A DNA stretch of 49,211 nucleotides from positions 1 to 49,211 of the forward strand of contig JACRDM010000071.1 in NCBI GenBank assembly GCA_016218565.1. Reading direction: 5' to 3'. Origin of the DNA: Elusimicrobiota bacterium (GTDB lineage Bacteria > CAYTYR01 > UBA6262). Under the pieces are notes generated by a model that made no database searches, was not told the DNA's origin, and was given only the letters and a program-made list of their open reading frames with translations. A program made the position numbers and the translations under genes. Of the stretch, positions 9,607-45,482 are shown piece by piece. Within the stretch, counting starts at the first letter, position 1, and every line of letters begins with the position of its first letter.

Positions 9607-9613
9607 TAAAAAT

Positions 9614-12340: not shown

Positions 12341-12391
12341 AGAACAAGGCACAAAGGTTTAAAGCAAAAACAGGCACAAAGGAAGTACAAC
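12341..12391. repeat. Family A (GGCACAAAG) element, partial copy ending in the SD + GTG of pilO
   Basis: GGCACAAAG at 12348-12356 and 12373-12381. The copy ends ggcacaaaggaagtacaacGTG (GTG 12392). Confidence 0.7.
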
Positions 12392-13740: not shown

Positions 13741-13790
13741 CAAATTCAAATATCAAATATCGAAAATCTAAATTATCTAAAATAGAGATG
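13741..13790. repeat. Family B-like AT-rich element, partial copy (upstream of pilQ)
   Basis: caaattcaaatatcaaatatcgaaaatctaaatt resembles the left arms of 6441-6565 and 25192-25290. Confidence 0.4.
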
Positions 13791-15589: not shown

Positions 15590-15960
15590 GTATAGGAATT
15601 TCAATCCTATACTTGATTGCCCAGATTAAAAATCAGATTATTCACTGTTATTAGATATAAATTATCTAACCGGGCAGGCAGATTTAAGCCAGAGCTGGTA
15701 AGCGGCGTAATCATTTAGAAATCTGTGCCTGTCCTCGCGGGTTTGACCCCGCTAATTTGGGATCCGCAGGGGATAATCAGTTAGCGAAGTCTAACTTGGG
15801 ATACAGATATCCAATGGGCCTATAAATTATCGACGCCAAGGTCGGGTTGAGATTTGAAATCAGCGCCTGTTCTCCCTGCTTTGATCCCGATTTGTCGGGA
15901 TCAAGGGGGGATAATTTGTTTTAAAATCCGTCCTGTCCCCCGTAGTGGGGAGAAATCCCG
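15590..15960. repeat. Cluster of family C structured repeats in both orientations (BIME-like array)
   Basis: Hairpin gtataggaatt-tc-aatcctatac (15590-15612). gattgcccagatt-N7-agatta (15615-15640). Units at 15634-15685 (forward), 15719-15778, 15857-15915 and 15923-15960 (reverse), each homologous to 9549-9606 (for example the gatcccga-tttg-tcgggatc hairpin). Confidence 0.7.
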
Positions 15961-16604: not shown

Positions 16605-16687
16605 TTATGAGCGTGGAATTGAGTAAAGCGAGTAACCAGTGGCGACGAGTAGCGGCTAAATTTGAAATTTAGGAATAAACAAATACC

Positions 16688-17503: not shown

Positions 17504-17509
17504 AAAATA

Positions 17510-17625
17510 AAGACAATTTCAAAAATCAAGTGACAAAATCCAAAGGAATCTTTAGCGCATAATCTTGGAATAAGTAATTTAATGGCCCTTACTGATTTAT
17601 GTGGGTTTTTAATTTTATTTGGAAT
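17510..17625. repeat. Family B-like AT-rich palindromic element (cheR-cheY spacer)
   Basis: The left side caatttcaaaaatcaagtgacaaaatcc is the approximate reverse complement of the right side gtgggtttttaattttatttggaattg. Followed by AAAGGAGG and ATG 17651. Confidence 0.5.
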
Positions 17626-19097: not shown

Positions 19098-20720
19098 ATG
19101 ACCGAGGATATGTCGCGCTACAAGGATATGTTTATCAGTGAGGCGACAGAATATCTGCAGAATCTGAATAAGTCCCTGCTGAGCCTGGAAAAAAACCCGG
19201 AAAACCTGGAATTGCTCAATGAAATCTTCCGGTTGGCGCATACCATGAAAGGTATGGCCGCAACTATGGGGTACCAAAAAATTACTACCGTGGCCCACCA
19301 GATGGAAGACGTGCTGGACCGGCTGCGCCAGCAGGAATTGAAAGTAGCACCGGAAATAATAGAGACTCTGTTCAAAGCTTTAGATGTGCTTGAACCGTTA
19401 GTGCGGGAAATAGTCAGCGGCGAAGATAAAAAAGTAGATATTAACGAGATCATTGTCGACTTAAGAATGATCATGGAACAAAAACAACCTGCAGCCGCGT
19501 CGCCAGCTAAAGAAACAGAAGCAGGAACTCCCCCGGACGAAAAAAAAACAGTAAGTAAAGAAGGCGAAAAAAAAAGAGCTCAAAATAGTGTCAGAATTAA
19601 TATCGAACATCTTGACAATCTGATGAATTTAGTCGGTGAATTGGTAATCAATAAAGCTCGGCTGTTCCAAATTGGAGCCAATTATAAATTAGGAGCGCTT
19701 AATGAAAGTTTAACCCAGTTAGAACGTATCACCGGCAGTTTGCAGGAAGAAGTTCTTAAAACCAGAATGATCCCGGTTTCCCATATCTTTGACCGGTATC
19801 CGCGGGTGGTCAGAGACCTGGCGAAGCTTAAAAATAAAGAGATAAATTTTGAAATTGAAGGATCGGATATCGAACTGGACCGGCTGATCGTAGATGAGAT
19901 TAATGATCCGTTGATCCATTTGATCAGAAATTCGGTAGACCATGGCATCGAAACCCCGCAGGAAAGGGTAAAAAATGGGAAAAGCGAAGCTGGTTATGTA
20001 AAACTTTCAGCCCGGCGTGAAAAAGGCTACGTGCGTATCGAATTAACTGATGACGGTAAAGGCATGGATCCGCAGGAGATCGCGGAGAAAGCTATTGAAA
20101 AAGGAATGATGACCAGGGAAAAATTAGTCCTGCTGACAGAGCAGGAAAGGCTCATGCTAATCTGCGAGCCGGGTTTTTCCACTGCGGCGGAGATAAGCGA
20201 TACCAGCGGCCGCGGCGTAGGCATGGATGTGGTCAAGACCAAGGTAGAGGCCTTCAATGGTTCAGTGACCATTGAAACCCAGAAGGGTAAAGGGTCCACC
20301 TTTATTATTAAGTTGCCTTTGACCCTGGCCATTATCCAGTCCCTCATGGTCAAGGTAGCAGAGGAGGTTTATGCTATACCGCTCTCTAATATTACTGAAA
20401 TAAATTCTTTTACTCCTGATTTTATCAGGACCATTGAAAAAAGAGAAGTGATAAAAATCAGGGAGGAAATACTGCCGCTGCTAAGTTTGCGTGAAGTATT
20501 TGATCTGCCGTCGCGGCAATATGGCGAAGAAATATGTGTCGTCACCGTGGAAGTGGGAGAAAAAAGATTGGGGCTCGTGGTTGATTCCATATACAGCCGG
20601 GAAGAAATAGTGATTAAAACATTAGGCGGCATTTTAAAAAGGACAAAGGGTATCAGCGGCGCTACTATCCTGGGCGATGGACGGGTGGTGTTGATCGTGG
20701 ATATTACCGGGATCATGTGA
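19098..20720 (+). CDS. cheA: Chemotaxis histidine kinase CheA, short form (Hpt, low-complexity linker, dimerisation, HATPase, CheW-like); no recognisable P2 domain
   Basis: 540 aa. Hpt FRLAHTMKGMAATMG. Only ~60 low-complexity residues lie before the dimerisation region SVRINIEHLDNLMNLVGELV. DDGKGMD and GRGVGMDVV boxes, and a CheW-like C-terminus. Confidence 0.9.
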   Translation: MTEDMSRYKDMFISEATEYLQNLNKSLLSLEKNPENLELLNEIFRLAHTMKGMAATMGYQKITTVAHQMEDVLDRLRQQELKVAPEIIETLFKALDVLEPLVREIVSGEDKKVDINEIIVDLRMIMEQKQPAAASPAKETEAGTPPDEKKTVSKEGEKKRAQNSVRINIEHLDNLMNLVGELVINKARLFQIGANYKLGALNESLTQLERITGSLQEEVLKTRMIPVSHIFDRYPRVVRDLAKLKNKEINFEIEGSDIELDRLIVDEINDPLIHLIRNSVDHGIETPQERVKNGKSEAGYVKLSARREKGYVRIELTDDGKGMDPQEIAEKAIEKGMMTREKLVLLTEQERLMLICEPGFSTAAEISDTSGRGVGMDVVKTKVEAFNGSVTIETQKGKGSTFIIKLPLTLAIIQSLMVKVAEEVYAIPLSNITEINSFTPDFIRTIEKREVIKIREEILPLLSLREVFDLPSRQYGEEICVVTVEVGEKRLGLVVDSIYSREEIVIKTLGGILKRTKGISGATILGDGRVVLIVDITGIM

Positions 20721-20803
20721 TCAAAGACAGGCACAGAGGCACAAAGTTTTAAAACAAAAGCAGGCACACAGGAAGTACAAGAACAAGGCACAAAGGAAAA
20801 ATA
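20721..20803. repeat. Family A element, partial copy ending in the SD + GTG of the actin-like ATPase gene
   Basis: GGCACAGAG 20730, GGCACAAAG 20738, GGCACACAG 20763, GGCACAAAG 20787. The copy ends ggcacaaaggaaaaataGTG (GTG 20804). Confidence 0.7.
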
Positions 20804-25141: not shown

Positions 25142-25191
25142 TTCGTGCCAATCTCCTAAATAGATCATCAGAAATAGCCTTATTTATTAAT

Positions 25192-25290
25192 CCAAATATC
25201 AAAAATAAGATATCAAAATGACAATGTAAAATTAAAAGTTAATTTTAGATTTTTGATATGTGATTTTGATTTTTGGATTTTGATTTTTGG
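25192..25290. repeat. Family B AT-rich palindromic element, copy 2
   Basis: aaatatcaaaaataag (left) pairs with agatttttgatatg (right). The right arm tgattttgatttttggattttgatttttgg is the reverse complement of the left arm of copy 1. Shares the 17-mer at 25210-25226. Confidence 0.75.
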
Positions 25291-25306
25291 TACAGGGAAG
25301 AATAAA

Positions 25307-27511: not shown

Positions 27512-29158
27512 ATGCTTACAATTGTTTTTTTGCTAGCCTGCGTGCTGTTTATATTAGCCTATGTCAAGTATGGTGGTTTTCTTAAGAAACATTTTGAGTT
27601 GGATAATAAGAACGATCCGCCGTCCTGCTCTAGGTATGATGGGGTAGATTACTGCCCGGCTCCTGCTCTCGTATTGTTTGGCCATCATTTCTCTTCTATT
27701 GCCGGCGCTGGCCCTGTTTTAGGCCCGATTATAGCTGGTATTGCTTTTGGCTGGGGACCGGTTTGGCTCTGGGTGGTGATCGGTTCAATTTTTATCGGCG
27801 GGGTCCATGACTTTTCCAGCCTGGTCATCTCTATCCGTAACCGAGGCCGTTCGATCGCTGAAATTGCTAATATTTACATGTCCCGGCGCGCTTATCGGCT
27901 CATGCTGGCATTTATTTGGCTGTGCTTAGTATATGTGCTGACTGTTTTTACAGATTTGACTGCCGCTACTTTCAAAGCCGATGGCGGGGTAGCCACTTCT
28001 TCTATTTTGTTTATGGTATTGGCAATTGGATTTGGCATAACGCTTTATCGTTTCAAAATGCCGCTTTCCTGGGCTACAGGGATATTCGTCTCCTTACTAT
28101 TTTTCAGCGTTTGGCTTGGTCAGCAGATACCCATGAATAATATCCCGGCAATTCTTGGCGATAAAGCCAAAACCTGGGATCTAGTATTAATAATATATTG
28201 TTTTATTGCTTCAGTCACCCCGGTCTGGATCTTACTGCAACCCAGGGATTATCTTTCCAGTTTCCTGCTCTATGGTTCGATCATCGGCGGCTTTTTGGGG
28301 ATTCTTTTTGGCGGGTTACCGCTTAATTATCCGGCATTTACGACTTGGAATGCTCAGGGAGTGGGTCCCATGTTCCCTCTGCTTTTTGTGACAGTTGCCT
28401 GTGGCGCCATTAGCGGTTTTCATTCTATTGTTGCCAGCGGCACATCTTCCAAGCAGATTAAGAAAGAATCTGATGCCCAACCGATCGGCTATGGAGCCAT
28501 GTTGGTTGAAGGATTGGTAGCAGTGATTGCTTTATGTACAGTCATGGTAATCAATAAGGATGACCCTTTGGTTGCTAAAGCTCCTTTGGCCATTTATGGC
28601 GCTGGCATAGCTAAATTTTTGTCCATTTTTGGCATTCCGGTAAAATTTGGCGCTTCGTTTGGATTATTGGCTCTTTCCACGTTTATTTTGACCACCCTGG
28701 ATACGGCAACCAGATTGGCCCGTTATATCTTCCAGGAATTTTTTAATATAGAGGGAAAGAAGACACGCTTTCTGGCTACAGCTGTTACTCTATTTCTGCC
28801 CGCGGTTTTTGTCTTGATCACTATTAAGGATGCCAATGGCAATATCGTCCCGGCCTGGAAAAGCATCTGGCCGATCTTTGGCGCTACCAACCAGCTGTTA
28901 GCTGGCCTGGCGCTGATGGTAGTGGCCGTGTGGCTCAAGAAAAAAGGCAAACAGATCTGGTTTGTGATCCTGCCCATGATCTTTATGCTGGGCATGACTT
29001 TAGGGGCTTTATTCCTGGTCATTATACGGTATAAATTAAGTTTATTAGGTTTCATCGGAGACGTATTATTATTGCTGGCGATCTTGCTGATACTAGAGGC
29101 CATAGATATTTTTGAAGTCAAAAAGCATATTAAGAAATTAATCAAAGGAAGAAGCTAG
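27512..29158 (+). CDS. cstA: Carbon starvation protein A family transporter
   Basis: 548 aa, polytopic. Has the CstA signature GHHFSSIAGAGPVLGPI. Confidence 0.85.
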   Translation: MLTIVFLLACVLFILAYVKYGGFLKKHFELDNKNDPPSCSRYDGVDYCPAPALVLFGHHFSSIAGAGPVLGPIIAGIAFGWGPVWLWVVIGSIFIGGVHDFSSLVISIRNRGRSIAEIANIYMSRRAYRLMLAFIWLCLVYVLTVFTDLTAATFKADGGVATSSILFMVLAIGFGITLYRFKMPLSWATGIFVSLLFFSVWLGQQIPMNNIPAILGDKAKTWDLVLIIYCFIASVTPVWILLQPRDYLSSFLLYGSIIGGFLGILFGGLPLNYPAFTTWNAQGVGPMFPLLFVTVACGAISGFHSIVASGTSSKQIKKESDAQPIGYGAMLVEGLVAVIALCTVMVINKDDPLVAKAPLAIYGAGIAKFLSIFGIPVKFGASFGLLALSTFILTTLDTATRLARYIFQEFFNIEGKKTRFLATAVTLFLPAVFVLITIKDANGNIVPAWKSIWPIFGATNQLLAGLALMVVAVWLKKKGKQIWFVILPMIFMLGMTLGALFLVIIRYKLSLLGFIGDVLLLLAILLILEAIDIFEVKKHIKKLIKGRS

Positions 29159-29297
29159 GCACAAAGGCACAAAGTTTAGAACAAAGACAGGGCACAAAGC
29201 GAAATAGTGTTTAAATCTTTTACTCTGTGCCTCTGTGCCTAACATTGAACTTCCTGTTTCTTTTAACTTTGTGCCTATTTTAGGAGGTTTTAATATA
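29157..29297. repeat. Family A element, full palindromic copy; overlaps the cstA stop and ends in the SD + GTG of gatC
   Basis: GGCACAAAG at 29158, 29166 and 29191. CTCTGTGCC at 29223 and 29231. CTTTGTGCC at 29267. The copy ends ctattttaggaggttttaatataGTG. Confidence 0.85.
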
Positions 29298-29585
29298 GTG
29301 AAAATAACTAAAAAAGAAGTAGAATATGTAGCCCGTCTGGCACGGCTGGCGCTCAGCGGAGCAGAAAAAGAAAAAATGACTGCCCAGCTTGATTCAATTC
29401 TCCAGTATATGGATACGCTTAATAAGCTGGATACTAAAAAAGTCGAGCCAACCAGCCATGTTCTGCCGCTGAAGAATGTTTGGCGGGAAGATGTGACAAA
29501 ACTCAGCTATGCCCGGGAGGAAATATTAGCCAATGCTCCGGAGCAGGCAGAAGGGTTTTATAAGGTGAAAAAAGTGATAGAGTAA
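29298..29585 (+). CDS. gatC: Glu/Asp-tRNA amidotransferase subunit C
   Basis: Start set at GTG 29298 (VKITKKEVEYVARLARLALSGAEKEKM is a typical GatC N-terminus). 95 aa. Confidence 0.85.
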   Translation: MKITKKEVEYVARLARLALSGAEKEKMTAQLDSILQYMDTLNKLDTKKVEPTSHVLPLKNVWREDVTKLSYAREEILANAPEQAEGFYKVKKVIE

Positions 29586-30035
29586 TAAAGTGGTAGAGTG
29601 GTAAGGTTATGACAAAGAGAAGCATTATTAAAACTGGACAAGTGCAGAACTTAACGATTCTAAAACTGTTGCCGCGGTCTGGAGCGCGTTGCCTCTGGCT
29701 AGGGATGAGATTTATTTTGAGATCCCGGTTAAAACCGGGTTAGAGAATAGGGTAGAAGAAGTGCCGGAAGGTGATCTATGATACTGGCCGCCGGGAAACT
29801 GTTTTTGTATATTTTTTGGCTTGCCGCCGCTGTCCACTGCAGGGCATAGCAAACCGGCCAGCGCAGGGTCCATTATTGGCAGGCTCCTGGGGACTCCTGA
29901 AAACTGGAAAGAAGTAGCAGTAGGAGAATGGATTTCAGTCGAAAAAAATAGCGTGAAGCGTATAGCGGATAGAAAAACAATAAATCTATACGCTGAACGC
30001 TGCCCGCTATACGCTAAGGAAGTAAGGAGTAGCTG

Positions 30036-31496
30036 GTGGAACTGTTTAAAATGACGGCGCATGAATTAAGTGAAAAGATCCGAAACAAGGAAGTGACTTC
30101 CCAAGAAGTTACGGTTAGTATTTTTAAAAGGATAGAAGCAGTAGAACCAAAGGTTAAAGCTTATGTCACCCTGCTCAAAGAAAATGCATTGCCGCAGGCT
30201 GATAAAATAGATCAGAAAATAAAAGCCGGGGAAAAGTTAGGTTCGCTTGCGGGTATCCCTATTGCTGTTAAAGACAATATGAATATTAAAGGGGTAAGAA
30301 GCACCTGCTCCAGTAAGATATTGAATAATTTTATTGCTCCATATGATGCCACGGTGATCAAGTTGCTGAAAAAGCAGGACGTGGTGTTTATCGGCAAGAC
30401 TAATATGGATGAATTTGCCATGGGCTCATCAACAGAGACCAGCTATTTCGGTAAAACCTATAATCCCTGGAACCTGGAGACGATCCCTGGCGGTTCCAGC
30501 GGAGGGAGTACGGCCAGCGTCGCGGCTGATGAAGCGATCTTAGCGCTTGGTTCTGATACCGGAGGTTCTGTCCGCCAACCGGCATCATGCTGTGGTATCG
30601 TTGGGTTAAAGCCGACGTATGGACGGGTTTCACGTTTTGGACTGGTAGCCTTTGCTTCTTCACTAGACCAGATCGGGCCGTTGACTAAAGACATTAGAGA
30701 CGCAGCTTTACTGATGAACGCTATTGCGGCTTATGATAAGAACGATTCCACCAGTGTTAACGTGCCAACCCCTGACTATACCAAATCTCTCATCAAGGAT
30801 TTGACCGGATTAAAGATCGGCATCCCTAAAGAATATTTTGTGGAAGGCCTGGATAAAGAAGTTGAGCAAAGTGTCAGGGAAGCGATTAAATTGCTGGAAA
30901 AGCAAGGGGCAAAAATTATAGAGATTTCCTTGCCGCATACGGAATATTGCCTGGCAGTTTATTATATCTTGGCGCCTTCTGAAGCCAGCGCTAACCTGGC
31001 CAGATATGATGGGGTTAAGTATGGCTATCGCACTCCTGAGGCTAAGGATTTACTGGAGCAATGTGAAAAAACGCGGGGCGAAGGATTTGGCCCAGAAGTA
31101 AAGCGCCGGATCATGCTGGGAACCTACGCTCTATCCAGTGGTTATTATGACGCTTATTATTTAAAGGCGCAAAAGGTGCGGACTTTGATCAAGAATGATT
31201 TTGCTGAAGCCTTTAAAAAGGTTGACGCTATTATTACCCCGACTGCGCCAACGGCAGCTTTTAAGATTGGGGAAAAGACCGCTGATCCGTTGCAGATGTA
31301 TTTATCGGATATTTTTACAATTTCCGTGAACCTGGCCGGAATTCCGGCGCTATCCATACCGTGCGGATTTACTTCACAGAAGATGCCGATCGGGCTGCAG
31401 ATCATGGCCAAGCACTTTGCTGAAGAAACAATATTTAAAGTAGCGTATGCCTATGAGCAGAATACGCAATGGCACAAAGAAAAGCCGATTTTGTAA
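30036..31496 (+). CDS. gatA: Glu/Asp-tRNA amidotransferase subunit A
   Basis: 486 aa. Amidase signature [13 protein letters not shown]...[13 protein letters not shown]. The start may be ATG 30051. Confidence 0.92.
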
Positions 31497-31509
31497 AGAA
31501 AGGAAGAAG

Positions 31510-31740
31510 ATGATAAGAAATTATACTAGATGGCAGAATTTTGAGAATAAACTTAGGAAAAAACAAAAAGTTAATATAAAAGAAAATTTTGCCCTGATGG
31601 ATGCTATGTACAAAGAAGCCGTGGCTTTAAAGATATTACCATTGAAGGATCTTTTAGAGGACTTAGCAGTAAAAATAAAGTTTGCCAAGGCGGTAAATAG
31701 TGTTCCAGCAGCTGCTCATAAAATTAGGCAAAGAGCTTAA
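31510..31740 (+). CDS. Small hypothetical protein (76 aa), first gene of a cassette inserted between gatA and gatB
   Basis: ATG 31510 lies just after the gatA stop. A/T-rich. It overlaps the next ORF by 41 nt. No motif recognised. Confidence 0.4.
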   Translation: MIRNYTRWQNFENKLRKKQKVNIKENFALMDAMYKEAVALKILPLKDLLEDLAVKIKFAKAVNSVPAAAHKIRQRA

Positions 31741-32254
31741 TAAAAATAAAATTCCCTATATGGTAATTGGCGGTCAGGCCGTCTTGGTATACGGCGAACC
31801 ACGATTAACTAAGGATATTGATATTACTTTGGGGATAGGCAGTGAAGAAATTGCCAAAATAAAAACAGTTATTAAGAAAATTGGTCTACGAGTATTAGTG
31901 AAGGATTTAGAAACTTTTGTTCATAAAACCATGGTTTGTCCGGTAGTTGATAAAAAATCCGGGATAAGGATAAATTTTATCTTTTCTTTTACTCTCTATG
32001 AACAGCCAGCTATAAGCCGAGCAAAAAAAGTAAAAATAGGGAAAACAGATATACCTTTTGCTTCGCTGGAAGACCTGATTATTCATAAGCTGATAGCTAA
32101 ACGGGAAAGAGATATAGAAGATGTTAAGACTATCCTGTTAAAAAATCCGAACTATGACAAAAAATATATACTAAAATGGTTGCGTGATTTTGATGAGACC
32201 TTAGGCACTAATTTAGCGAAGGTGTTTGCGAAAGTAACGAAAGATCTAAAGTAG
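31700..32254 (+). CDS. Minimal Pol-beta-fold nucleotidyltransferase (AbiEii / DUF6036-like pattern)
   Basis: 184 aa. IPYMVIGGQAVLVYGEPRLTKDIDITL fits hG[GS]-x13-DhDh. GTG 31700 is the first possible start after stop 31694-31696. Confidence 0.55.
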   Translation: MFQQLLIKLGKELNKNKIPYMVIGGQAVLVYGEPRLTKDIDITLGIGSEEIAKIKTVIKKIGLRVLVKDLETFVHKTMVCPVVDKKSGIRINFIFSFTLYEQPAISRAKKVKIGKTDIPFASLEDLIIHKLIAKRERDIEDVKTILLKNPNYDKKYILKWLRDFDETLGTNLAKVFAKVTKDLK

Positions 32255-33755: not shown

Positions 33756-34808
33756 ATGTCGGAAAAAAATGTTGCGGGGCAAAAGATTTCTCCCAAAAGC
33801 ACCAAACAAGAGATGTTGGAAGCTTATAACGATTTGGTGGTGCAAATGGAGGAAAAGGAAAAAGCGACCTTGAAACCCGAGGTGGCTATGGAACGTAAGA
33901 AGAGTAAAGAAGTGGTAGAAATTGCGGATGGGTTATCAACTGAAAGCATTATTCAGGGAGTCAATGCGGTCAGAATGGAAAGCGGCAGGCTCTTGTCGCA
34001 GCTTACTGAGTCGTTAGAGAAGGAAGCGCAAAAATATAGAACTATCAAAGACGCTATTGAAATAAGGGAAAAAGATTTGCAGGATATTTACGAGATTGAA
34101 AAATCAGCGCAAACATTGGCGGCGCTGATTGAGGCGCAGACAGTCAAAAGAGAAGCATTCGAAGGAGAAATGGCTGAGGAAAAAGAGCGATTAACGAAAG
34201 AAATAGCCGCCTTGCGGACTACGTATGAAGAAGAAAAGAAATTGAATGAAACGCAAAAGAAAGAGCGTGATGAGGCGGAACAGAAGAGACGGCAGAGAGA
34301 AAAAGAAGAGTATGAGTATTCCTTTAAGAGGGAGCAGCAGCTGGCCCACCATACCTTAGAAGACGATAAACTTACCAAGGAAAAAGAGATATTGCAGAAA
34401 AAGGAAGCGGTAGACAAAGAGCTGGCTGAAAGAGCGCGGAAAATGGCAGAGGACGAAAAGAAAGTTGCCGAGCTGCAAAAACGATTTGCCAATGTACCGC
34501 AGGAAACAGAGGTAGCCCTGCAGCGGGCGGTGAAAGAAACCACGGAGAAATTGTATAAAGAAGCGGGAGCGAGAGAGGAATTGTCGAACAAAACCTTTGA
34601 AGGTGAAAAGAATGTATTAATGGCTCAGATTGATTCTCTGGAGGAGACGACGAAAGATCAAAAGGAACAAATTCTCCGGCTTACAGGACAATTGGAAAAA
34701 GCCTATCAAAAGATTGAAGATATAGCCGTGAAAACCGTGGGCGGAGTGGCTGAGGCAAAAGCGGCGTTAGTAAATGTTCAGCGAAATGAAGAGCAGACTA
34801 AGCGATAG
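33756..34808 (+). CDS. Glu/Lys-rich coiled-coil protein of unknown function
   Basis: 350 aa, almost entirely heptad-like charged sequence. No enzymatic motif. Confidence 0.55.
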   Translation: MSEKNVAGQKISPKSTKQEMLEAYNDLVVQMEEKEKATLKPEVAMERKKSKEVVEIADGLSTESIIQGVNAVRMESGRLLSQLTESLEKEAQKYRTIKDAIEIREKDLQDIYEIEKSAQTLAALIEAQTVKREAFEGEMAEEKERLTKEIAALRTTYEEEKKLNETQKKERDEAEQKRRQREKEEYEYSFKREQQLAHHTLEDDKLTKEKEILQKKEAVDKELAERARKMAEDEKKVAELQKRFANVPQETEVALQRAVKETTEKLYKEAGAREELSNKTFEGEKNVLMAQIDSLEETTKDQKEQILRLTGQLEKAYQKIEDIAVKTVGGVAEAKAALVNVQRNEEQTKR

Positions 34809-34977
34809 AAGCAGAAAGAAGCAAGAGTGGCGCTATCAAAATGTACCCTGAACAAAAGAACATTCAGAAATATAGTCGATTCTTGATATTATTGGTTTTT
34901 ACCAAGAAGCCAGCAGTGGCTACGGGTTTTAAAGCCAACGGGAACATTTATTCTGAATATTAAAGAAAAAATCAGAA

Positions 34978-35472
34978 TTGGTGGGAATTGATTTGGAATT
35001 TGAAAAAGACGGTCTTAGGTATGCTGTAGAAAGCAAAGCCGGTTGGAATTGGGGTAATTCAAGCCAGATAAGACAACTACGGATCAATTTTGAAAACGCA
35101 AAAAAGATATTACGCGTAAAGACTGGCAAAAAAGTTGTTGCGGTGAAGGGATGTTGTTTTGGTAAAGACAATAAGCCCGATAAAAATGGCTATTTCAAAG
35201 TAGGTGGACAGAATTTTTGGGAGTTTATTTCTGGCGATACGAACTTATATGTAGAAATAATTGAACCGCTAGGATGTAAAGCAAAACAAAAGAACGAGGA
35301 ATTTTTGGAAGGCTACGCGCAAATAATCAATAAGCTGACATTGGAGTTTTCGCAAAAGTTTTGCGATGACGGGAAAATTAACTGGGTAAAACCGGTCAAG
35401 TATAATTCGGGATTTGAAAAACTGGACCATGAAGGGGAGGTTAGATTTAGACAAAGAGGTAAAAGTTGCTGA
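34978..35472 (+). CDS. PD-(D/E)xK restriction-endonuclease-like ORF, probably a gene fragment
   Basis: GIDLEFEKDGLRYAVESKAG gives D-x12-E-x-K. FWEFISGD follows later. Out-of-frame related pieces flank it (34841-34963 and 35390-35593). A/T-rich. TTG start. Confidence 0.4.
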   Translation: MVGIDLEFEKDGLRYAVESKAGWNWGNSSQIRQLRINFENAKKILRVKTGKKVVAVKGCCFGKDNKPDKNGYFKVGGQNFWEFISGDTNLYVEIIEPLGCKAKQKNEEFLEGYAQIINKLTLEFSQKFCDDGKINWVKPVKYNSGFEKLDHEGEVRFRQRGKSC

Positions 35473-36125: not shown

Positions 36126-37544
36126 TTGACAACTTTAGTAAAGTCCCTAGAAGTAAAAGAAAAAGTGAACCTGAAAATAAAGAACCTTATCCTCGGTGGC
36201 GAGGCCTTAGCCCGTTACCGGGGGTTTACTATTTTCCTGCCGTATGGCTGCCCGGGCGATGAGGTAGAGGCAGAGATCACGGAAGTAAAAAAAGATTACG
36301 CCCGAGCCAGAATAACCAAGATCATAACGCCTTCCAGCAATCGCATTTATCCGCCCTGCCCCTACTTTTATCGCTTGGAAGAGCAGGTAGAAGATAAGCT
36401 TTTCTGCGGCGGCTGTGATTGGCAGCATATTAATTATGAAACGCAGCTTAAATTAAAGACGGCCATGGTCCAGGACGCTCTGAGCTATATTGCCCGCTTT
36501 AAGAATCCTAAGGTGCTGGGTATTATTCCCGCAGATAGTCTTTTTAATTACCGCAACAAAACGCAGTTAAAAGTAGGTTTACGGGAAAAAGAAGAAGGCG
36601 GGAAAAAGATCGTCTGTGGCTTCTATGCTAAGAATACTCATCGTATTATTGATGTAGAAAAATGCCAAATCCAGACTGAAACAGCTAATGCCATATTGGC
36701 GCTGACGCGCCACCTGCTTAGTGAATATGAATTACCTGGTTATGATGAAGAAACGCATCGCGGTTTAGTGCGCCATATCATCTTGCGCGCCGGAGTGAAT
36801 ACCGGCCAGTACATGTTGATTTTTGTCACCAAGGAGAAGGACTTCCCCAATAAGGCGGAGATCGCGTCTAAAATTATGGAACGTTTCCCGCAGGTGGTCA
36901 GCGTTATCCAGAATATAAATAAAGCCAAGACTAATGTGATCCTGGGAGAAGACACCCTGGTTATGGCCGGCAAAATAAAGATACAGGAGAAGATCAAGAA
37001 CCTTTCCTTTGATATATCCCCGGTTTCTTTTTTTCAGACTAATACCAGGCAGGCCGAGAAATTATATGATACGATCTTGGAATTCGCTGAACTTACTGGT
37101 AATGAGTTGGTTTTCGATGTATATAGCGGGGCCGGGGCGATCGCTTTATCTATAGCTTCGCGGGCGCAAAAAGTGGTGGGTATTGAGTCGGGACAAAGCG
37201 CGGTGAAAGACGCTATGGCGAATACCGACTGGAACAAGATAGATAATGTGGAATTCCGTATAGGCGAAGCCGAGTTGGTATTATCCCGGTTATATAAACA
37301 ACAAGTAAAGCCGGAGGTCATTATTGTTGATCCACCGCGCAAAGGCCTGTCCCCAAAAGTAATAGAGGCGATCATTAACCTGGTACCCAAAAGAATTATC
37401 TATGTTTCCTGCGAGCCATCGACCATGGCGCGCGATCTGCAGATCCTGCATAAAAAGCATTATAAATTAGAAGTAGCGCAGCCAGTGGATATGTTTCCGC
37501 AGACGGCCCATATTGAATGCGTGGCGAAAATAACCAAAAGTTGA
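36126..37544 (+). CDS. RumA/RlmD-family 23S rRNA (uracil-C5)-methyltransferase (TRAM + Fe-S + SAM MTase)
   Basis: 472 aa. TRAM-like N-terminus, a Cys cluster including CGGCDWQH, and SAM-fold motifs DVYSGAGAI, DPPRKG and YVSCEPSTMARD. Confidence 0.85.
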   Translation: MTTLVKSLEVKEKVNLKIKNLILGGEALARYRGFTIFLPYGCPGDEVEAEITEVKKDYARARITKIITPSSNRIYPPCPYFYRLEEQVEDKLFCGGCDWQHINYETQLKLKTAMVQDALSYIARFKNPKVLGIIPADSLFNYRNKTQLKVGLREKEEGGKKIVCGFYAKNTHRIIDVEKCQIQTETANAILALTRHLLSEYELPGYDEETHRGLVRHIILRAGVNTGQYMLIFVTKEKDFPNKAEIASKIMERFPQVVSVIQNINKAKTNVILGEDTLVMAGKIKIQEKIKNLSFDISPVSFFQTNTRQAEKLYDTILEFAELTGNELVFDVYSGAGAIALSIASRAQKVVGIESGQSAVKDAMANTDWNKIDNVEFRIGEAELVLSRLYKQQVKPEVIIVDPPRKGLSPKVIEAIINLVPKRIIYVSCEPSTMARDLQILHKKHYKLEVAQPVDMFPQTAHIECVAKITKS

Positions 37545-37631
37545 TACGTTGATACGTAAAAGCTTTTCGATTTACTTTCCTTATAATCTTATCATCATAT
37601 CATCGCCTTATTAACAGGAGGCTATACTGAA

Positions 37632-39020: not shown

Positions 39021-39275
39021 GATTATTTGAAAAATTTGCTTGAATAGGGTATATTTATTTTTATAGCTGTATGTGAAACCATAAAAAACGAAGTCGTATA
39101 TAGGTTAGGCGCTAAAGCAGGTTTATGATAGAATCAAAAGAGAAGCAAGTGGCTGAAAGTTTATCGTAGTGGCAGGTAAAATTTGGATAATCGGTAATTG
39201 AGAAAATTGTCGATAAAATATTTTCGCTGGAGACTGAGAGGAGAGATAGCCTCTTTTTTGTTAATACGATTACAC

Positions 39276-39305
39276 AGATTATTGAAACAGATTACACGGA
39301 TTAAG
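39276..39305 (+). promoter_or_regulatory. AGATTA-rich 30-nt block directly upstream of the LTD-protein gene
   Basis: agattattgaaacagattacacggattaag is 25/30 identical to 7806-7835. Preceded by gattacacagatt (39268-39280). Overlaps the SD AAGGAGG (39303-39309). Confidence 0.4.
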
Positions 39306-39316
39306 GAGGAGCCTTT

Positions 39317-42300
39317 GTGTTTAAAATAATAGGGCTAGTATTATTATTGCTGACTGCGAACTGCCAGCTGCGATCTGCTTTTGCTGTTTCCCCGGGAGAT
39401 GTCGTTATTAATGAGATCATGTGGATGGGAAATACGGCTTACAGCAATGACGAGTGGATAGAATTGCGTAATATGACTAAGACAGATATTAATATCGACG
39501 GGTGGGATATTACCAAATGGAATAGCGCGGATAAAGAAGAGTTAATGCTGACTGTTCCTGCTGGGAAAATTATTCCCGCGGAAGGCTATTTTCTCATTGC
39601 GCATTATAGTAGCAGTAACAGTAGTTCAACGCTTAATATTGAACCTGATTTCGTGAAACCTTCTATAACTCTATCAAATAGTAATTTACAGATTAAACTC
39701 TATGGCGGGAAATGGGATAATGGCGCTATACTTGTTGATATTGCTGGAGACAGTGGTGTGCCTTTGGCCGGTGATAATAGTAAGAAATATTCTATGGAAA
39801 GAATTGATCCTCCAGGTGATGGAACTAATTTCGCTTCTTGGCAGACAGCAATGACCGCTATAAATTGGGATGCCACAGCTACCGAAAAAGGAACTCCGAA
39901 AGCAGCCAATAGTAAAGATATTATTCCCCCAGGTTCTGTCCCTGATTTATCTGCAAGTACCGGCCTAAATACCGGTGAAATAGATTTGACCTGGACCGCG
40001 CCGGCAGAAGACAATTCTGAGGGAGGGACAGTTGCTTCGTATGATCTGCGGTACGCTACTATGGCTTTCAGTGAGATTGCCTGGAATCAACCTTGGGTAT
40101 ATCAATTTTCTCTTAATGGTATAATACCGAAAAAACCTGGTGAAAAGGAAACATTGACAATTTCAGGATTAGACGCTGGAGCAACATATTATTTCGCTAT
40201 CAAGTCACAAGATGAAGTTTCTCAAGTTTCCCCTATAGACGTACAATCCGCCCAGAGTAATCAAGCTTGCGCTAGAGCTCAGGTAAAATTTACGGCGCGT
40301 ATTACTGAAGTGAGTTTTGCTTCTGCCGTAGACTGGGTAGAATTGTATAACTATGGAGATACCGCATTAGATATCTCGCATTTTATGCTTACTGATTTAG
40401 ACGGCACTACGGATACAGCTTTTGCTGAATTACCGGTAACGCTGCCTCCCGGCAAATATGCTGTAGTATATTGGGATGAAGCGGGTATAGATGAAACTAA
40501 TGTCGCCGGTGATCTTAACGGTAACGGGGTCATAGATTTGTATGTAAGTGACACCAGCCTGTCGGCTACTGATGACCAGATAGTCTTAATGAGCGCGGCC
40601 AGCGGCGGGCAATTTGTTGACACTATTTGCTGGGCCAATCAGAGTGGAGGATTTTCACCGGGGGAAGAAAATGATCTGCTTTTGCTGTCAGGCCAGGGAA
40701 TGTGGAAATTGGGCGGCGCTGGTCCGAGTGAAGCAGATTGTGTCAATAGTAAGGATATAACAGTGGACCAGTCCTTTGGGCGCCTGACCGCGACAGCGGT
40801 TGATAATAATGACAGCAGTGACTGGAAATTATTCAAACTGCCGACGCCGGGAAAAGATAATCCGGAACTGGTTCCGCCAAAAGTTACTTTATTATTTGAC
40901 CCGCCTCCCCCATTCACCACGGGACGGATCAAGGTATCTCTAAATATCGAAGCCGGCAATTTGATCGGCAAAGAGCCGCAAATATCATATTTTTGGGGAC
41001 TGGAACCGGCGCAACCACTGTCGCTAATCGGAGCCGATAAAGCCTGGGTAGGAGAATTGACCATCCCCGCCCACTCGGAAGAAAGAAATATTATATTCCA
41101 ATATACAGTGGAAGATATAGCTCAAAATATCACTGTCGGAGAGGTAACGGCTCTAGGTCTGGCGCAAGAATTGCCGTCTGAACAGCCGGCGGGAGATGAT
41201 AAAGATCCCGGCAATCCGGCGGTAGAGTACAAAATTCGAATTACGGAAGTAGCTTTTGCAGCTTCCATCGATTGGGTAGAGCTGTACAACTACGGCGAGA
41301 CGGCGGTTGATATAGCTGATTTTATGCTTACTGACCTGGATGGGATAGATACCAAGATCGCTGACCAGAAAACGACGTTGGCTCCGGGCAAATATGCGAT
41401 AGTCTACTGGGATGATGCAGGTATAGATGAAACTGATGCTGCCGGAGATTTTAATAATAACGGTTTTATAGATTTGTATGTAAGTGACACCAGCCTGTCG
41501 GCTACTGATGACCAGATAGTCTTAATGAGCGCGGCCAGCGGCGGGCAATTTGTTGATGCGGCCTGCTGGAGCACGGGCCTAGGTGAATTCAGCAGTGGCG
41601 AAGATAAAGATATAAGATTGTTAGCAGATAACAAGCAATGGATTATTGCCGGGGGTACGGTTACTAAAAGCGATTGTTGGAGCGATACTAATAAAATAAC
41701 CAGTGAGCAAGCTATCGGGCGGCTTAACCCGACTGCGCCTGACACTGATTCCAAAAACGACTGGCATTTATTTAAATTACCCACTCCCGGGCAAGACAAT
41801 CCCAGCTTGCTCCCGCCAATCATTACCTTGCTCTTTGACCCGGAGCCGCCTTTTAAAGCCGGCCAGATAAAAATCAGCCTGCACATTGGAACTTTGAATT
41901 CTATAACCGCGGCACCAGAAATAAGCTTTAATGAAGGAGTTGGGGATTTCCAAAACATTACGTTGAGCGGAGCGGATAAGACCTGGCAGGGTGTTTTTGA
42001 GATTTCTCAGAACGAGGCAGAAAGGAATGTTTCCTTTAAATATAAAGTCAGCGACCAGGCTAAAAACAGCACTGAACAGGAAATAATGTACCTGGGACTG
42101 GCCTATGTGCCGCCTGAATATGGAGAGCGGATGTATTGTTTCCCTAATCCCTGGGCTATGAATTCAGGGCAAAACCTTAAGTTCTCCAATCTAGGGGTTG
42201 ATGAAAGCACGATAAAGATCTTTACTTTGCATGGTGAGTTGGTTAAAATGCTCACTGGACAGGGCGACGCTTATTGGGATGGTACCAATGAAAATGGAGA

Positions 42301-42454: not shown

Positions 42455-42757
42455 ATGAAAAATGACCAGCGGTCTTACGGTCGGATACCTTCATTAAAAC
42501 ACATTTCGGGAACTCTTTACTCTGAGCCTAAGCCAGACGAGCTGATTATAATACAAATAAAGGATCTTAGCCCGGGCGGGGTCCTCTGTGAAAGTAAAAC
42601 CGCAGTTCCGGTCGGGATTATTGTACATCTGGAGATTAAATTCCCAGCTACGGTCAATGATGAACCGTGCCGGGTAACCGGTAAAATAGTGCGGTGCAAT
42701 AAAAACGACCGGAGTAATAGATTTGAAGTGGCAGTAGCGTATATAAGAAAAAAATAG
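42455..42757 (+). CDS. PilZ-domain c-di-GMP receptor
   Basis: Start set at ATG 42455. RxxxR = RSYGR (42470-42484). DxSxxG = DLSPGG (42563-42580). 100 aa. Confidence 0.75.
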   Translation: MKNDQRSYGRIPSLKHISGTLYSEPKPDELIIIQIKDLSPGGVLCESKTAVPVGIIVHLEIKFPATVNDEPCRVTGKIVRCNKNDRSNRFEVAVAYIRKK

Positions 42758-42761
42758 AAGT

Positions 42762-42918
42762 AAGGCACAAAGGCACAAAGTTTTGAAGCAAAAGCAGGCA
42801 AAAAGCGAAACAATTTTTCTAATCTTTTACTCTGTGCCTAACTTTGAACTTCTTGCTTGTTGTTAACTTTGTGCCTTTGTGCCTTGTATTGGTACCTATT
42901 TTGAGGAGGTCTAACAGG
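42762..42918. repeat. Family A element, full palindromic copy ending in the SD + GTG of the nucleotidyltransferase gene
   Basis: GGCACAAAG at 42764 and 42772. CTCTGTGCC at 42830. CTTTGTGCC at 42867 and 42875. The copy ends ctattttgaggaggtctaacaggGTG. Confidence 0.85.
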
Positions 42919-45423
42919 GTGAAAGCGCTCATAATGGCGGGAGGATTAGGAACGAGACTGCGCCCGTTGACTATCAATTATCCTAAACCGATGGTGCCGG
43001 TGGTCAATAAGCCAATGATGGCTCACCTCATCGAATTGCTGAAGAAACATAGCATTAATGAAATGATTTCCATTCTCTATTATCAGCCGGAAATGATCAA
43101 GAATTATTTTGCCGACGGCAGTGATTTTGATGCGCAGATGGAGTATGTCGATGCCGTAGAAGATTTCGGCACTGCGGGCAGCATAAAAAACGCCGAACCA
43201 GGTATCAATGAAACTTTCCTGGTCATCAGCGGTGATGTACTCACTGATTTTGATTTGACTGCGGCCCTGAATTTCCATCAAGCCAAAAAGGCTCTGGCTA
43301 CCATGATCCTGACCAGGGTTGCTAATCCGCTTGCTTACGGTGTGGTGATCACTGATAAAGAAGGCGCGATTGAGAGATTTCTCGAAAAGCCGGTGTGGGG
43401 AGAGGTGTTCAGCGATACTGTTAATACCGGTATCTATATCCTGGGCCCGCAAATCTTTGAATTTATTCCAGAAAAAAAAGAGTTTGATTTTAGCCGCAAT
43501 TTATTTCCGCATTTACTGGAGAGTAAGCAAGCCCTCTATGGCTATATAGCCGATGGTTATTGGAAAGATATCGGTGACTTGGCTGAATATCGCCTGGCCC
43601 ATCAGGATATATTGACTGGTAAGGTGCAGGTGAAGATTCCAGGTAATAAGCTCAATACGATAGGTCGGGATATCTGGGTAGGCGAGGATAGTGAAATAGA
43701 TAAGCAGGCTGACCTGAAAGGGGGCGTGATCATCGGCCAGAATTGCGTGATCAAGCGTGGAGCAGAGATAATCAATTCAGTGATTGGCGATAATGTTCAG
43801 ATTGAAGAAGGGGCTAAAATAATAAATTCAGTTATCTGGGAAAACACTCATATCGGGGCGAAAGCCGAGTTGAAAGAGAATATCATCGGCCAAGGAGTAG
43901 ACATTCGCCGGCAGGCTTTTATCCAGGATGGCGTGGTAATCGCTGATGAATGTGTGATCGGCGAAGAGGCGCGCATCAAAGATAATATTAAGTTGTGGCC
44001 GCATAAAGTGGTGGAGGACGGAGCTACGTTATCAACGAGCCTGGTGTGGGGAGAGAAATGGTCTAGGACTCTTTTTGGGGCCTACGGAATTTCCGGCCTG
44101 GCTAATATAGAGATGACTCCTGAATTCGTCGCCAAAGTAGGCGCGGCCTATGGCGCGTTTCTGGGTAAAGGCGCCACGGTAATGACTAGCCGTGATTCGC
44201 ACAAAGCCAGCCGGATGATCAACCGGGCCTTTATCTGCGGCCTGCTGTCCAGCGGTGTAAATGTGAAAGATTTAAGGAATATTCCGACTCCCTTATTACG
44301 TTATAATCTGGGCAAGGAAGGGGAAAAAGGCGGTATCCATGCCCGTAAGTCTCCTTATGACCCGCAGGTTATCGATATAAAGTTTTTTGATATTGGCGGT
44401 CTAGACTTGTCGTTCTATAAGGAAAAGTCCATTGAGCAATTATTCTTCCGTGAAGATTTCCGTCGGGCTAAAGTGGAAGATACCGGCGAATTGACCTTCC
44501 CTGGACGTATTATTGAAGATTATAAAGAGGGTTTCTTAAATTCCATAGACCATAAAGCTATCAGCCAGACCCGCTTGCGGGTAGTGATCGATTATGCTTT
44601 TGGCGATGGAGCTACCTTGTTCCCATCTATTCTTGGCGACTTGGGATGTGAAGTCATTTCTTTGAACGCCAATATTGATCCGGTCAAATTCACCAAAAGC
44701 GAAGACGAATTCCATCAAGCCTGGAAAAAATTAGCGGATATTACTGTAGCCCTGAAAGCTGATGTCGGGTTCATGCTGGATACCGGCGGAGAAAAACTGT
44801 TTTTGGTAGATGAAAAAGGGCAGGTAGTTACTGATGATAAAGCCTTGGCTCTGGTGGCGACGCTGATCATGCGGGAAAAGAAAGGGGCCAAGATCGGTAT
44901 TCCGGTAACTGCCAGCAAGGTAATTGAGGAGATGGCTAAAAAGTATCAGGCCGAGGTCATTCGTACTAAAACCTCGCCGCGTTCCATCATGGAACAGGCT
45001 TTAAGAAAAGAGCAGGACTTGCTGGGAGATAATTTAGGCGGCTTTATTTTTCCGCATTTCATGGGAGCGTTTGACGCCATGTTTTCCCTGGCGAAAATAC
45101 TGGAGTTAATGGCCAGGCAAAACGCGCGTCTGCATCAGTTGAACGAAGAATTGCCCAAAATACATATCCGGAAAGAGCGTGTCCCCTGCACCTGGGCCGC
45201 CAAAGGGACGGTCATGCGTAATGTTGTCCAGCGGGCCAAAGATGACGGGGAAAAATACGAGTTGTTCGACGGTATTAAAATTATCAACAAAGACTACTGG
45301 GTCTTGCTGATCCCGGACCCGGATAAGCCTTTCTTTAATATTTATGCAGAGTCTGAATCCAGCGGTAAAATACTGGAAGTTATCAATAAATATAAAAACA
45401 GAGTGCTAGAGTGCCAAGGGTAA
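42919..45423 (+). CDS. Sugar-1-phosphate nucleotidyltransferase (NTP-transferase + left-handed beta-helix) fused to a phosphohexomutase-like domain with degenerate catalytic motifs
   Basis: Start set at GTG 42919 (VKALIMAGGLGTRLRPLT). Hexapeptide-repeat region. The C-terminal PGM/PMM-like part has GGIHARKSPYDP where the canonical sequence is GGIxxTASHNP, and DTGGEK where it is DGDADR. Confidence 0.8.
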   Translation: MKALIMAGGLGTRLRPLTINYPKPMVPVVNKPMMAHLIELLKKHSINEMISILYYQPEMIKNYFADGSDFDAQMEYVDAVEDFGTAGSIKNAEPGINETFLVISGDVLTDFDLTAALNFHQAKKALATMILTRVANPLAYGVVITDKEGAIERFLEKPVWGEVFSDTVNTGIYILGPQIFEFIPEKKEFDFSRNLFPHLLESKQALYGYIADGYWKDIGDLAEYRLAHQDILTGKVQVKIPGNKLNTIGRDIWVGEDSEIDKQADLKGGVIIGQNCVIKRGAEIINSVIGDNVQIEEGAKIINSVIWENTHIGAKAELKENIIGQGVDIRRQAFIQDGVVIADECVIGEEARIKDNIKLWPHKVVEDGATLSTSLVWGEKWSRTLFGAYGISGLANIEMTPEFVAKVGAAYGAFLGKGATVMTSRDSHKASRMINRAFICGLLSSGVNVKDLRNIPTPLLRYNLGKEGEKGGIHARKSPYDPQVIDIKFFDIGGLDLSFYKEKSIEQLFFREDFRRAKVEDTGELTFPGRIIEDYKEGFLNSIDHKAISQTRLRVVIDYAFGDGATLFPSILGDLGCEVISLNANIDPVKFTKSEDEFHQAWKKLADITVALKADVGFMLDTGGEKLFLVDEKGQVVTDDKALALVATLIMREKKGAKIGIPVTASKVIEEMAKKYQAEVIRTKTSPRSIMEQALRKEQDLLGDNLGGFIFPHFMGAFDAMFSLAKILELMARQNARLHQLNEELPKIHIRKERVPCTWAAKGTVMRNVVQRAKDDGEKYELFDGIKIINKDYWVLLIPDPDKPFFNIYAESESSGKILEVINKYKNRVLECQG

Positions 45424-45482
45424 AGACAGTGGTAAAGTGGTAGAGGGGTAGAATAATAAAGTGAAAAGGGAAAAGAATAAAA

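Follow-up and report, generated by a model that had tools for sequence, protein, structure and literature searches.

Among described bacterial repeats, the closest to the family reported here include the repetitive extragenic palindromic (REP) units and the bacterial interspersed mosaic elements (BIMEs). The REP unit is an imperfect palindrome of 20–40 nucleotides (nt) with a GTAG-like tetranucleotide at its 5' end, which is recognised by the REP-associated tyrosine transposase (RAYT), an IS200/IS605-like Y1 transposase. The background on REP and BIME repeats is reportedly laid out by Gilson et al. in 1991, Nunvar et al. in 2010, and Liang, Rudd and Deutscher in 2015. The present family was found in a stretch of 49,211 nt from an Elusimicrobiota bacterium (assembly GCA_016218565.1, contig JACRDM010000071.1), which is the whole scope of the analysis in this genome and is called the window below. 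Its unit was scored as GGCACARAG on both strands, and its five copies, A to E, lie between genes. Like REP and BIME repeats, it is extragenic and often situated within operons, combines units of opposite orientation with conserved linkers into mosaics, would form hairpins in the mRNA after stop codons, and has dispersed copies that are present or absent among relatives: the units form clusters of alternating orientation, the linkers and the centre are conserved at 79–87%, and 23 of the 24 units are intergenic. It differs from them in its unit, a non-palindromic 8–9-mer in overlapping tandem arrangement without a GTAG-type head, and in that the copies carry the Shine-Dalgarno sequence (SD) of the downstream gene and fill the entire gap from stop to start; no RAYT was found among the open reading frames (ORFs) of the window.

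The BOX elements of Streptococcus pneumoniae and the miniature inverted-repeat transposable elements (MITEs) of the Correia and enterobacterial repetitive intergenic consensus (ERIC) types are modular (A-Bn-C-like), partly self-complementary, transcribed intergenic inserts that can alter the expression of their neighbours. The window family shares with them the modular build, the variable number of internal units, the partial self-complementarity and the transcribed intergenic sites, but has no terminal inverted repeat with target duplication, no sequence similarity and no promoter-like sites. Of the traits of MITEs, presence/absence polymorphism at orthologous sites was found at four junctions compared among relatives (L121–L133). 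Terminal inverted repeats, target duplication and uniform length were not found: there is no duplication, the copies vary from 51 to 238 nt, and two of them are one-armed.

A role in translation has been proposed for the TAACTGA heptamer direct repeats of marine Beggiatoaceae and for the short tandemly repeated repetitive (STRR) heptamers of cyanobacteria (PMC4679880). Also these are oriented short tandem intergenic units, located mostly a few nucleotides upstream of starts, showing no functional pattern in the downstream genes and scattered across phyla (PMC4679880). The TAACTGA arrays are however exclusively direct, show little resemblance to an SD and usually stand in its place (PMC4679880), while in the window family one half is inverted, the linkers are conserved and there is an explicit GGAGG module. 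Tandem repeats of 7–8-nt units were found here as in STRRs (GGCACAAAGGCACAAAG with an 8-nt period, and other 7–9-mer families in the window), but the array alone does not make up the element, which includes non-repetitive linkers and a terminal module (S module, see below). In Cluster K mycobacteriophages, the start-associated sequences (SAS), with their extended forms (ESAS), comprise a 13-bp motif that includes the ribosome-binding site (RBS) and 17-bp inverted repeats; they are confined to phages and kept at orthologous genes (PMC3203893). The likeness consists of an RBS-containing repeat before the starts of unrelated genes, preceded in about half of the cases by an imperfect inverted repeat with a spacer of variable length, and nearly always in one orientation (PMC3203893). 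The window copies differ in being 50–240 nt long, built of octamers, located in a cellular genome and subject to rapid turnover. Their SD stands 6–10 nt from the start after the palindrome, compared to 3–8 bp for the RBS of SAS; there is no sequence relation and the analogy is functional only.

As the family departs from REP in the type of unit, from MITEs in termini and duplication, and from pure STRRs in having unique conserved sequence, it is a member of none of these. In the searchable full-text literature the 9-mer occurred only in primers and no paper contained the 17-mers, and copy E had no BLAST match in the annotated phage and plasmid collections. The palindromic repeat family is real and previously undescribed; it sits within the known kind of intergenic mosaic repeats and is no new kind of system.

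The window includes 24 exact matches to GGCACARAG, against 0.66 ± 0.79 expected and a maximum of three in 100 dinucleotide-preserving shuffles. Five clusters (12348–12381, 12967–13149, 20730–20795, 29158–29275 and 42764–42883) hold 23 of them, in agreement with the initial annotation, which had listed five copies; the sole match outside the clusters, at 31471, is isolated and lies within a gene. By direct reading, the units overlap with an 8-nt period and the complements CTYTGTGCC sit on the right in the three long copies. The full copies had been described as imperfect palindromes, and indeed the repeat finder matched two 21-nt arms of copy E (42762–42782 and 42865–42885) with 100% complementarity, together with extensive cross-matches among the copies in both orientations. 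The copies measure 51, 83, 141, 157 and 238 nt, one arm being wholly missing in two of them. Their left ends abut the upstream stops, also as first described: the TAG of cstA overlaps the first unit in copy D, and 6–9 A-rich nucleotides separate the stop from the first unit in the other copies.

Alignment and profile searches identified a composite core of about 115–140 nt, formed by an L arm, a centre and an R arm with conserved linkers, and 79–87% identical between pairs of copies. The L arm has the layout GGCACAAAGGCACAAAG-TTTTRAARCAAAAGCA-GGCACAAAG, the centre includes AATTTTTCTAATCTTTTA, and the R arm has the layout CTCTGTGCC-TAACATTGAACTTCCTGCTTTCTTTTAA-CTTTGTGCC. The core is in forward orientation in copies D and E and reversed in copy B, where it lies inside extra units, while nothing but the L arm is present in copies A and C. 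Since conserved non-octamer linkers are common to the copies, the element is composite and more than a cluster of 9-mers; the anatomy given in the initial annotation was right about the clusters and missed the linkers and the fact that the core of copy B runs opposite to that of D and E. The core with its linkers was found by profile search in the window clade only (four times in the window, twice in L133, and in L068, L127 and L123), and a metagenome scan with a 29-nt pattern of the L module returned one locus, L127.

The three long copies (B, D and E) end in a 25-nt S module, TATTTT-GAGGAGG-TYTAACAG-N-GTG, composed of a U-tract, an SD and a GTG. The pattern TATTTTGAGGAGGTTTAACAGNGTG matched the S modules of copy B (two mismatches) and copy E (one mismatch) and nothing in 100 shuffles, which bears out the homology of the right ends noticed earlier. 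The modules of B and E are identical at 22 of 25 positions, and that of copy D is more diverged, with a 1-nt deletion. A short ORF upstream of the GTG, using as its stop the conserved TAA 4 nt away, was considered, but in the window copies it has no start codon and no consistent frame. The same end layout was seen in a Bacillota contig of 59% GC (L113, 1396–1650), where a GGCACAAAG palindrome ends CTCTGTGCC-TGTTATTTTCTAAGGAGGTTTTCCC-TTG before an aminotransferase-like gene; shared ancestry and convergence on a consensus RBS are both possible for it.

According to Pfam, the genes flanking the copies are pilMN, pilO and the gene of a 178-aa (amino acid) protein (A lying between the first two and B between the last two), cheA and a 712-aa FtsA/PilM-like gene (C), cstA and gatC (D), and a PilZ-domain gene and an 834-aa NTP-transferase/phosphomannomutase fusion (E). 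The positions are given in Table 1.

Table 1. Copies of the repeat family in the window, with their modules and adjoining stop and start codons.
Feature	Position	Strand	Composition and adjoining codons
Copy A	12341–12394	+	L module only: AGAACAA-GGCACAAAG-GTTTAAAGCAAAAACA-GGCACAAAG-GAAGTACAAC
Copy A junction	pilMN stop TAA 12338–12340 to pilO GTG 12395	+	Whole spacer filled; SD AAGGAAG 12379–12385 from last unit
Copy B	12959–13196	+	Left run of GGCACAAAG units 12967–13023, inverted core 13014–13150, right-hand linkers; core model matches minus strand
S module of copy B	13175–13199	+	TATTTTGAGAGGGTTTAACAGCGTG; SD GAGAGGG 13181–13187; GTG 13197–13199, start of 178-aa gene
Copy C	20721–20803	+	L module plus extra GAAGTACAAGAACAA-GGCACAAAG unit; SD AAAGGA from last unit
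Copy C junction	cheA stop TGA 20718–20720 to GTG 20804 of 712-aa FtsA/PilM-like gene	+	
Copy D core	29156–29276	+	L-centre-R; cstA TAG 29156–29158 overlaps first GGCACAAAG unit; nhmmer 29157–29276, 122 bits
S module of copy D	29276–29300	+	TATTTTAGGAGGTTTTAATATAGTG; SD AGGAGG 29282–29287; GTG 29298–29300, gatC start
Copy E	42758–42895	+	AAGTAA, L arm, centre, R arm, short tail; begins 1 nt past PilZ-domain gene stop TAG 42755–42757; 116 bits
Copy E arms	within 42758–42895	+	L: GGCACAAAGGCACAAAG, linker TTTTGAAGCAAAAGCA, GGCAAAAAG; R: CTCTGTGCC, linker TAACTTTGAACTTCTTGCTTGTTGTTAA, CTTTGTGCCTTTGTGCC
S module of copy E	42897–42921	+	TATTTTGAGGAGGTCTAACAGGGTG; SD GAGGAGG 42903–42909; GTG 42919–42921, start of 834-aa NTP-transferase/phosphomannomutase gene

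In all five window copies the SD lies 6–10 nt from the start codon, in the short copies A and C being formed by the last unit plus GA. At orthologous junctions without a copy, the SD of the downstream gene is inside the end of the upstream gene (e.g. GAGGGA before TAGtATG), while at filled junctions it is in repeat DNA, in a segment homologous between copies. On this comparison, the predicted SD of the downstream gene is supplied by the repeat. The initial annotation had stated that the repeat occupies whole intra-operon spacers and carries the SD of unrelated genes, which is supported; in relatives the empty sites are overlapping or 1–7 nt wide.

The start codons agree with those of orthologues. 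Close homologues of the 834-aa protein were all 834 aa long with 100% coverage, and in L128–L131 the gene starts exactly at the position of the window GTG 42919. The start position matches also for gatC (L130), the FtsA-like gene (L123 and L125) and the 178-aa gene (L132); in L130 a 16-nt spacer precedes gatC, which begins there with an ATG, and the 178-aa gene of L132 has an ATG at the equivalent codon. The terminal GTG had been taken for the real start in at least two cases, and these positions support it; pilO needs a correction, as its homologues of 187 aa indicate that it most likely starts at the second GTG, 12395. A GTG follows all five window copies, compared to 18 of the 108 called starts in relatives (17%), and GTG at five of seven element-adjacent starts gave a Fisher p-value of 0.003. 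Clean pairs, with ATG at the empty and GTG at the filled site, were found for copies B, C and D. The possibility that copy B gives the 178-aa gene a new N-terminus was rejected, because L132 has the same N-terminus without the element.

The orthologous loci of relatives were gathered via homologues of PilO and of the 834-aa enzyme. Between pilO and the next gene, the window and L133 have the 238-nt copy B, and the site is empty in L121 and L123 (gagggaTAGtATG, TAGtATG), L125 (ggaTAAccATG) and L132 (gagggaTGAcATG, TGAcATG). Between cheA and the FtsA-like gene, L125 has 7 nt and an ATG, L123 a single L module and a GTG, and the window a longer copy and a GTG. The pilMN-pilO junction is an ATGA overlap in L125, an unrelated 50-nt spacer in L121 and L123, and an unrelated 97-nt hairpin in L132; it holds an L module in the window, and L133 has a full copy of 224 nt there. 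In the hairpin of L132 (1392–1488), the 3' arm GGAAAGGAAGAGCGGGGTG holds the SD and the GTG start and pairs with CCCCCGCTCTTCC just past the stop.

In five close relatives with 81–94% identity in the flanking protein, the junction between the PilZ-domain gene and the enzyme (window 42758–42918) is filled by four unrelated kinds of spacer. In L128 (3006–3138) and L129 (4426–4563), with protein identities of 94 and 86%, it is occupied by another palindromic family of GATTACAGT units, in L130 (9907–10000) by a third family, GTAGAGCT, and in L131 (8914–8955) by a repeat-free spacer of 42 nt. Three of the four spacers are thus palindromes of different octamers (GGCACAAAG, GATTACAGT and GTAGAGCT), and the start codon alternates between GTG and ATG. 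At the DNA level the window and L132 are sisters (89–90% identity) and L133 is the outgroup (86%). Copy B, shared by the window and the outgroup, is missing in the sister, so its distribution is not tree-like.

Judged from these alignments, the copies are lineage-specific insertions into junctions that are otherwise overlapping or 1–7 nt wide. The comparison shows copies still being gained, lost and swapped at such once-overlapping or narrow junctions, and the elements turn over faster than the flanking genes diverge.

When folded, the full copies gave long hairpins, with minimum free energies (MFE) of -54.5 kcal/mol for copy E (z -3.2), -41.4 kcal/mol for copy D (z -2.1) and -67.7 kcal/mol for copy B (z -4.6). 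The main stem pairs L and R units and starts a few nucleotides past the stop codon, the SD lying 3' of the stem. The half copies A and C were unstructured (MFE -1.6 to -2.8, z > 0; copy A MFE -1.6, z +1.3).

The reading that we hold to be the most probable, with somewhat better than even confidence, is that the copies belong to a clade-specific family of mosaic, non-coding dispersed repeats of the general kind of REP/BIME, BOX and cyanobacterial STRR repeats, functioning as a portable intercistronic cassette. A full copy consists of a sense-strand run of GGCACARAG with an 8-nt period, beginning 0–9 nt past the stop, followed by linkers, the complementary run and the terminal 25-nt module that provides a U-tract, a strong SD and the start codon; a short copy is the sense-strand half, its last unit (..CAAAG) with GA serving as the SD. 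Insertion would destroy termination-reinitiation coupling and move the old SD, located within the upstream gene, out of range. Since coupling needs overlaps or very short distances (PMC10666635), an inserted copy would need an SD of its own. Only the copies that bring their own ribosome-binding site would then survive in operons, and the element would act as a portable stop-to-start cassette; the evidence suggests that selection kept translation-competent copies. The hairpin of a full copy, right after the stop, would probably buffer the upstream message and uncouple the cistrons in the manner of a REP hairpin. A half copy may instead act as a purine-rich leader without structure, in which an SD-like AAGG/GAGG recurs every 8 nt, favouring the loading of ribosomes.

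Some copies and relatives weaken the link of the GTG to the element. A full copy in L133 ends in AAGGAAGTATACGGG-ATG, the copy of L127 likewise precedes an ATG, that of L068 lies between convergent genes, and pilO and the NTP-transferase gene have a GTG also in relatives with unrelated spacers. The earlier view of the GTG as a part of the element is therefore only partly upheld, by the five window copies and the Fisher test; the link between GTG and the element in the window is genuine but not obligatory. Several observations weigh against the cassette reading. The core of copy B is inverted but its S module is not, so the S module may be a separate unit, or copy B may have flipped internally. 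The likeness of the S module to copy D and to the Bacillota contig L113 could partly be convergence on a consensus RBS. No target-site duplication was present at any filled/empty junction and no sharply defined termini were seen, nor was there a transposase or other mobilising enzyme among the window ORFs, so that mobility is read from presence and absence only. Of this genome only 49 kb were examined, and every role given to the element at the RNA level is one that we infer.

Octamer arrays were found also outside the clade. Two tandem GGCACARAG units were sought in about 185,000 genomes and matched at least 120 loci, with about 280 single hits expected by chance; among the matches listed, about 40 loci had four or more units, as arrays or palindromes, in many phyla and with GC contents of 35–73%. 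A scan of viral contigs gave 114 loci. One of these, a 13.6-kb contig of 61% GC (L213, IMGVR_UViG_3300010342_000922), has eight nearly identical GGCACAGAGGCACAAAGGCAGAAGGCACAGAG arrays in its coding strand; six start at most 6 nt past the upstream stop, and several end a few nucleotides before the next ATG. Among the matches listed from the genome and viral scans, the palindromes had the arm order GGCACARAG...CTYTGTGCC in 55 cases against two clean reverse cases. A long ORF ended within 30 nt of the edge in 30 of the 55 palindromes in these matches, compared to 14% for random positions; likewise among the matches listed, the direct arrays following a stop codon had the purine-rich strand as sense in 25 loci and the other strand in five, and their association with the downstream start was not significant. 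The preference for start codons, which the initial annotation took as its own refuting check, is accordingly borne out only in part, the wider sample being tied strongly to the upstream stop and not to the downstream start.

Control octamers were scanned in the viral contigs. There were 41 loci with the reversed unit, at least 120 with GCAGCARAG, every one a direct array and probably coding, and 116 with GACGCARAG, including 11 palindromes with the same arm order and none reversed. That GGCACARAG would be uniquely widespread was thus rejected, the control octamers being comparable and GACGCARAG forming the same palindromes; GGCACARAG belongs to a larger class of octamer arrays that has been little described. 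It is possible, although doubtful, that this is a widespread undescribed class of polar stop-to-start cassettes: sense-strand arrays right after stops, with the purine-rich arm 5', in many phyla and phages, able to spread, and providing an autonomous, SD-bearing, perhaps ribosome-retaining, intercistronic leader in place of termination-reinitiation coupling. In Desulfobacterota and Bacillota metagenome-assembled genomes (L064 ~5025–5200, L074 ~4380, L076 1–230 and ~4365, L010 ~50–230, L055 ~835–1010), arrays are bracketed by GTAACTAYTCAGG ... CCTGAGTAGTTAC, which look like genuine terminal inverted repeats belonging to another element, of MITE-like type.

An unlikely alternative to the cassette is that the units are arrays of protein-binding sites defining a regulon, bound by an RNA-binding protein (CsrA-, Hfq-, S1- or Csp-like) or by a DNA-binding one. 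DNA-binding precedents are the binding of BIMEs by integration host factor (IHF) and gyrase and of stoperators by phage repressors, and the terminal CACAAAGGAAG resembles the CsrA site, ACA-GGA. The tandem, evenly spaced and strictly sense-oriented units adjoining start and stop codons would suit such a role, as would the eight near-identical sense-strand copies in the intercistronic spacers of the phage contig L213, and the same idea has been proposed for the TAACTGA repeats upstream of starts (PMC4679880). No candidate protein was identified in the window, however, the downstream genes are functionally unrelated, and many different octamers behave alike. Also, close relatives have entirely different repeats at the same junction, as would be expected of a structural or selfish element more than of a regulon that depends on a particular sequence.

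Neutral or selfish simple-sequence DNA, in which slippage and quasi-palindrome template switching create and enlarge the arrays wherever a gap tolerates them and the SD-like end and the GTG are local adaptations, appears decidedly unlikely. The 8-nt overlap period, the variable number of units and the gain or loss of modules (L123 compared to copy C; L133 compared to copy A) accord with it, as do the many other 7–9-nt array families in the window and its relatives. Long simple-sequence repeats of 5–11 nt have been described from scattered bacteria (Mrazek 2007, summarised by PMC4679880), which points the same way. But the linkers and the centre are 79–87% conserved at unrelated loci, which requires a template copied from place to place and not local slippage; the close identity of the S modules of B and E tells likewise against it, and the strict polarity relative to stop codons is unexpected from slippage alone.

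Quite improbable is a translational, riboswitch-like hairpin that alternately hides and exposes the SD or the start, for example depending on a ribosome terminating upstream; such a role had been suggested in the initial annotation. The MFE fold of copy D pairs AGGAGGUU with AACUUCCU of the R linker, the R-arm units hold the anti-SD-like CCUCU, and the unrelated spacer of L132 has its SD and GTG in the 3' arm. When the L arm was removed, CUUUUACUCUGUGCC 5' of the R arm could pair with the region from SD to start in copies E, D and B. These L-less folds had z values of -0.6 to +1.2 and were no more stable than shuffles, leaving a switch that masks the SD unsupported. In copy E, the best folder, the SD is outside the main stem, the half copies A and C are structureless yet sit in the same type of junction, and the core works in either orientation (B compared to D and E), which a specific switch would hardly tolerate. 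The suggestion was consequently not borne out.

The DNA uptake sequences (DUS) and uptake signal sequences (USS) are highly over-represented 9–12-mers, often present as inverted pairs after genes. That the copies are intra-operon terminators or attenuators, or uptake sequences in a window encoding a type IV pilus, has very little probability: a hairpin followed by UAUUUU occurs in each full copy, and the over-representation and inverted pairing recall DUS/USS, but consensus scans found no terminator in copy D or inside copy B, one weak match in copy E (42879–42895) and no more matches than in shuffles, the A/U-rich stems have large interior loops and their U-run is only 4 nt, unlike an intrinsic terminator (short GC-rich stem, 3–8-nt loop, U-run ≥ 5), and DUS/USS are dispersed single copies, present also in genes and species-specific, whereas here the units are clustered in five spacers, with one of 24 in a gene, and the unit is shared by many phyla and phage contigs. 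Consensus scans of the copies likewise showed no promoter and no sigma-70 excess, and a sigma-54 reading of the TGGCAC-like units was rejected by eye, since the GG-N10-GC spacing does not fit the 8-nt period. Rfam, at the gathering threshold and at E ≤ 1, identified two tRNAs only in the window, and it gave no match on any array in 15 other loci.

Many other 7–9-nt array families form palindromic or direct spacers in the window and its relatives. A second spacer family, with units AATATCAAAAATCAA and complement TGATTTTGATTTT, is present at 6436–6575, 13742–13773, 17506–17529 and 25186–25295; its 25180–25295 copy folds into a hairpin with z -3.9, and the 6436–6575 copy more weakly (z -1.1). Direct arrays of AGTGGTAR follow right after the stops of gatC (29574–29603) and of the NTP-transferase gene (45428–45460), the latter being kept at the orthologous junction in L128 (5644–5702) and L129 (7069–7133). 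Further short-unit spacer repeats at 29950–30015, 37540–37560, 39270–39310 and 16605–16650 include a palindrome GCGTGAAGCGTATAGCG...CGCTATACGCT, two copies of GTTGATAC, GATTACAC-type units and GAGTAAAGCGAGTAAC. Hairpin repeats of about 60 nt, AATCTGTGCCTGTCC...GGGGATAATC, are present in about three copies in the 678-nt gap between the secretin gene and cheW (15720–15960), and an inverted copy, conserved in L121 (7089–7196), lies upstream of an F5/8-type-C gene (9549–9607); the family reaches z values of -3.7 and its ends hold GGCACAGA-like units.

The gene content around copy D differs from that of L130, where positions 1–3961 have the order uvrD-gatC-x-gatA-gatB. In the window, uvrD and gatC are separated by an additional gene, cstA, gatA and gatB by an AbiEii/DUF6036-like nucleotidyltransferase pair, and gatB is followed by an EcoO109I-like restriction-enzyme fragment, these extra-gene regions being 27512–29158, 31447–32254 and 33756–35472. 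The gene of a 1021-aa lamin-tail-domain/CHU_C protein includes an internal duplication of about 300 nt (40298–40633 and 41237–41569, 73–87% identical).

If the reading of the copies as portable intercistronic cassettes is correct, selfish or semi-selfish repeats can split translationally coupled gene pairs and the operon survives, because the RBS is brought along. Gene callers would then meet GTG starts and "new" SDs that are derived from repeats. Operon stoichiometry could also shift fast, as one junction here bears four different spacers while the flanking protein is still 81–94% identical. The polarity of the arrays relative to stop codons, across phyla and phage contigs, offers a testable handle on the long-unexplained repeats of the STRR and heptamer type.

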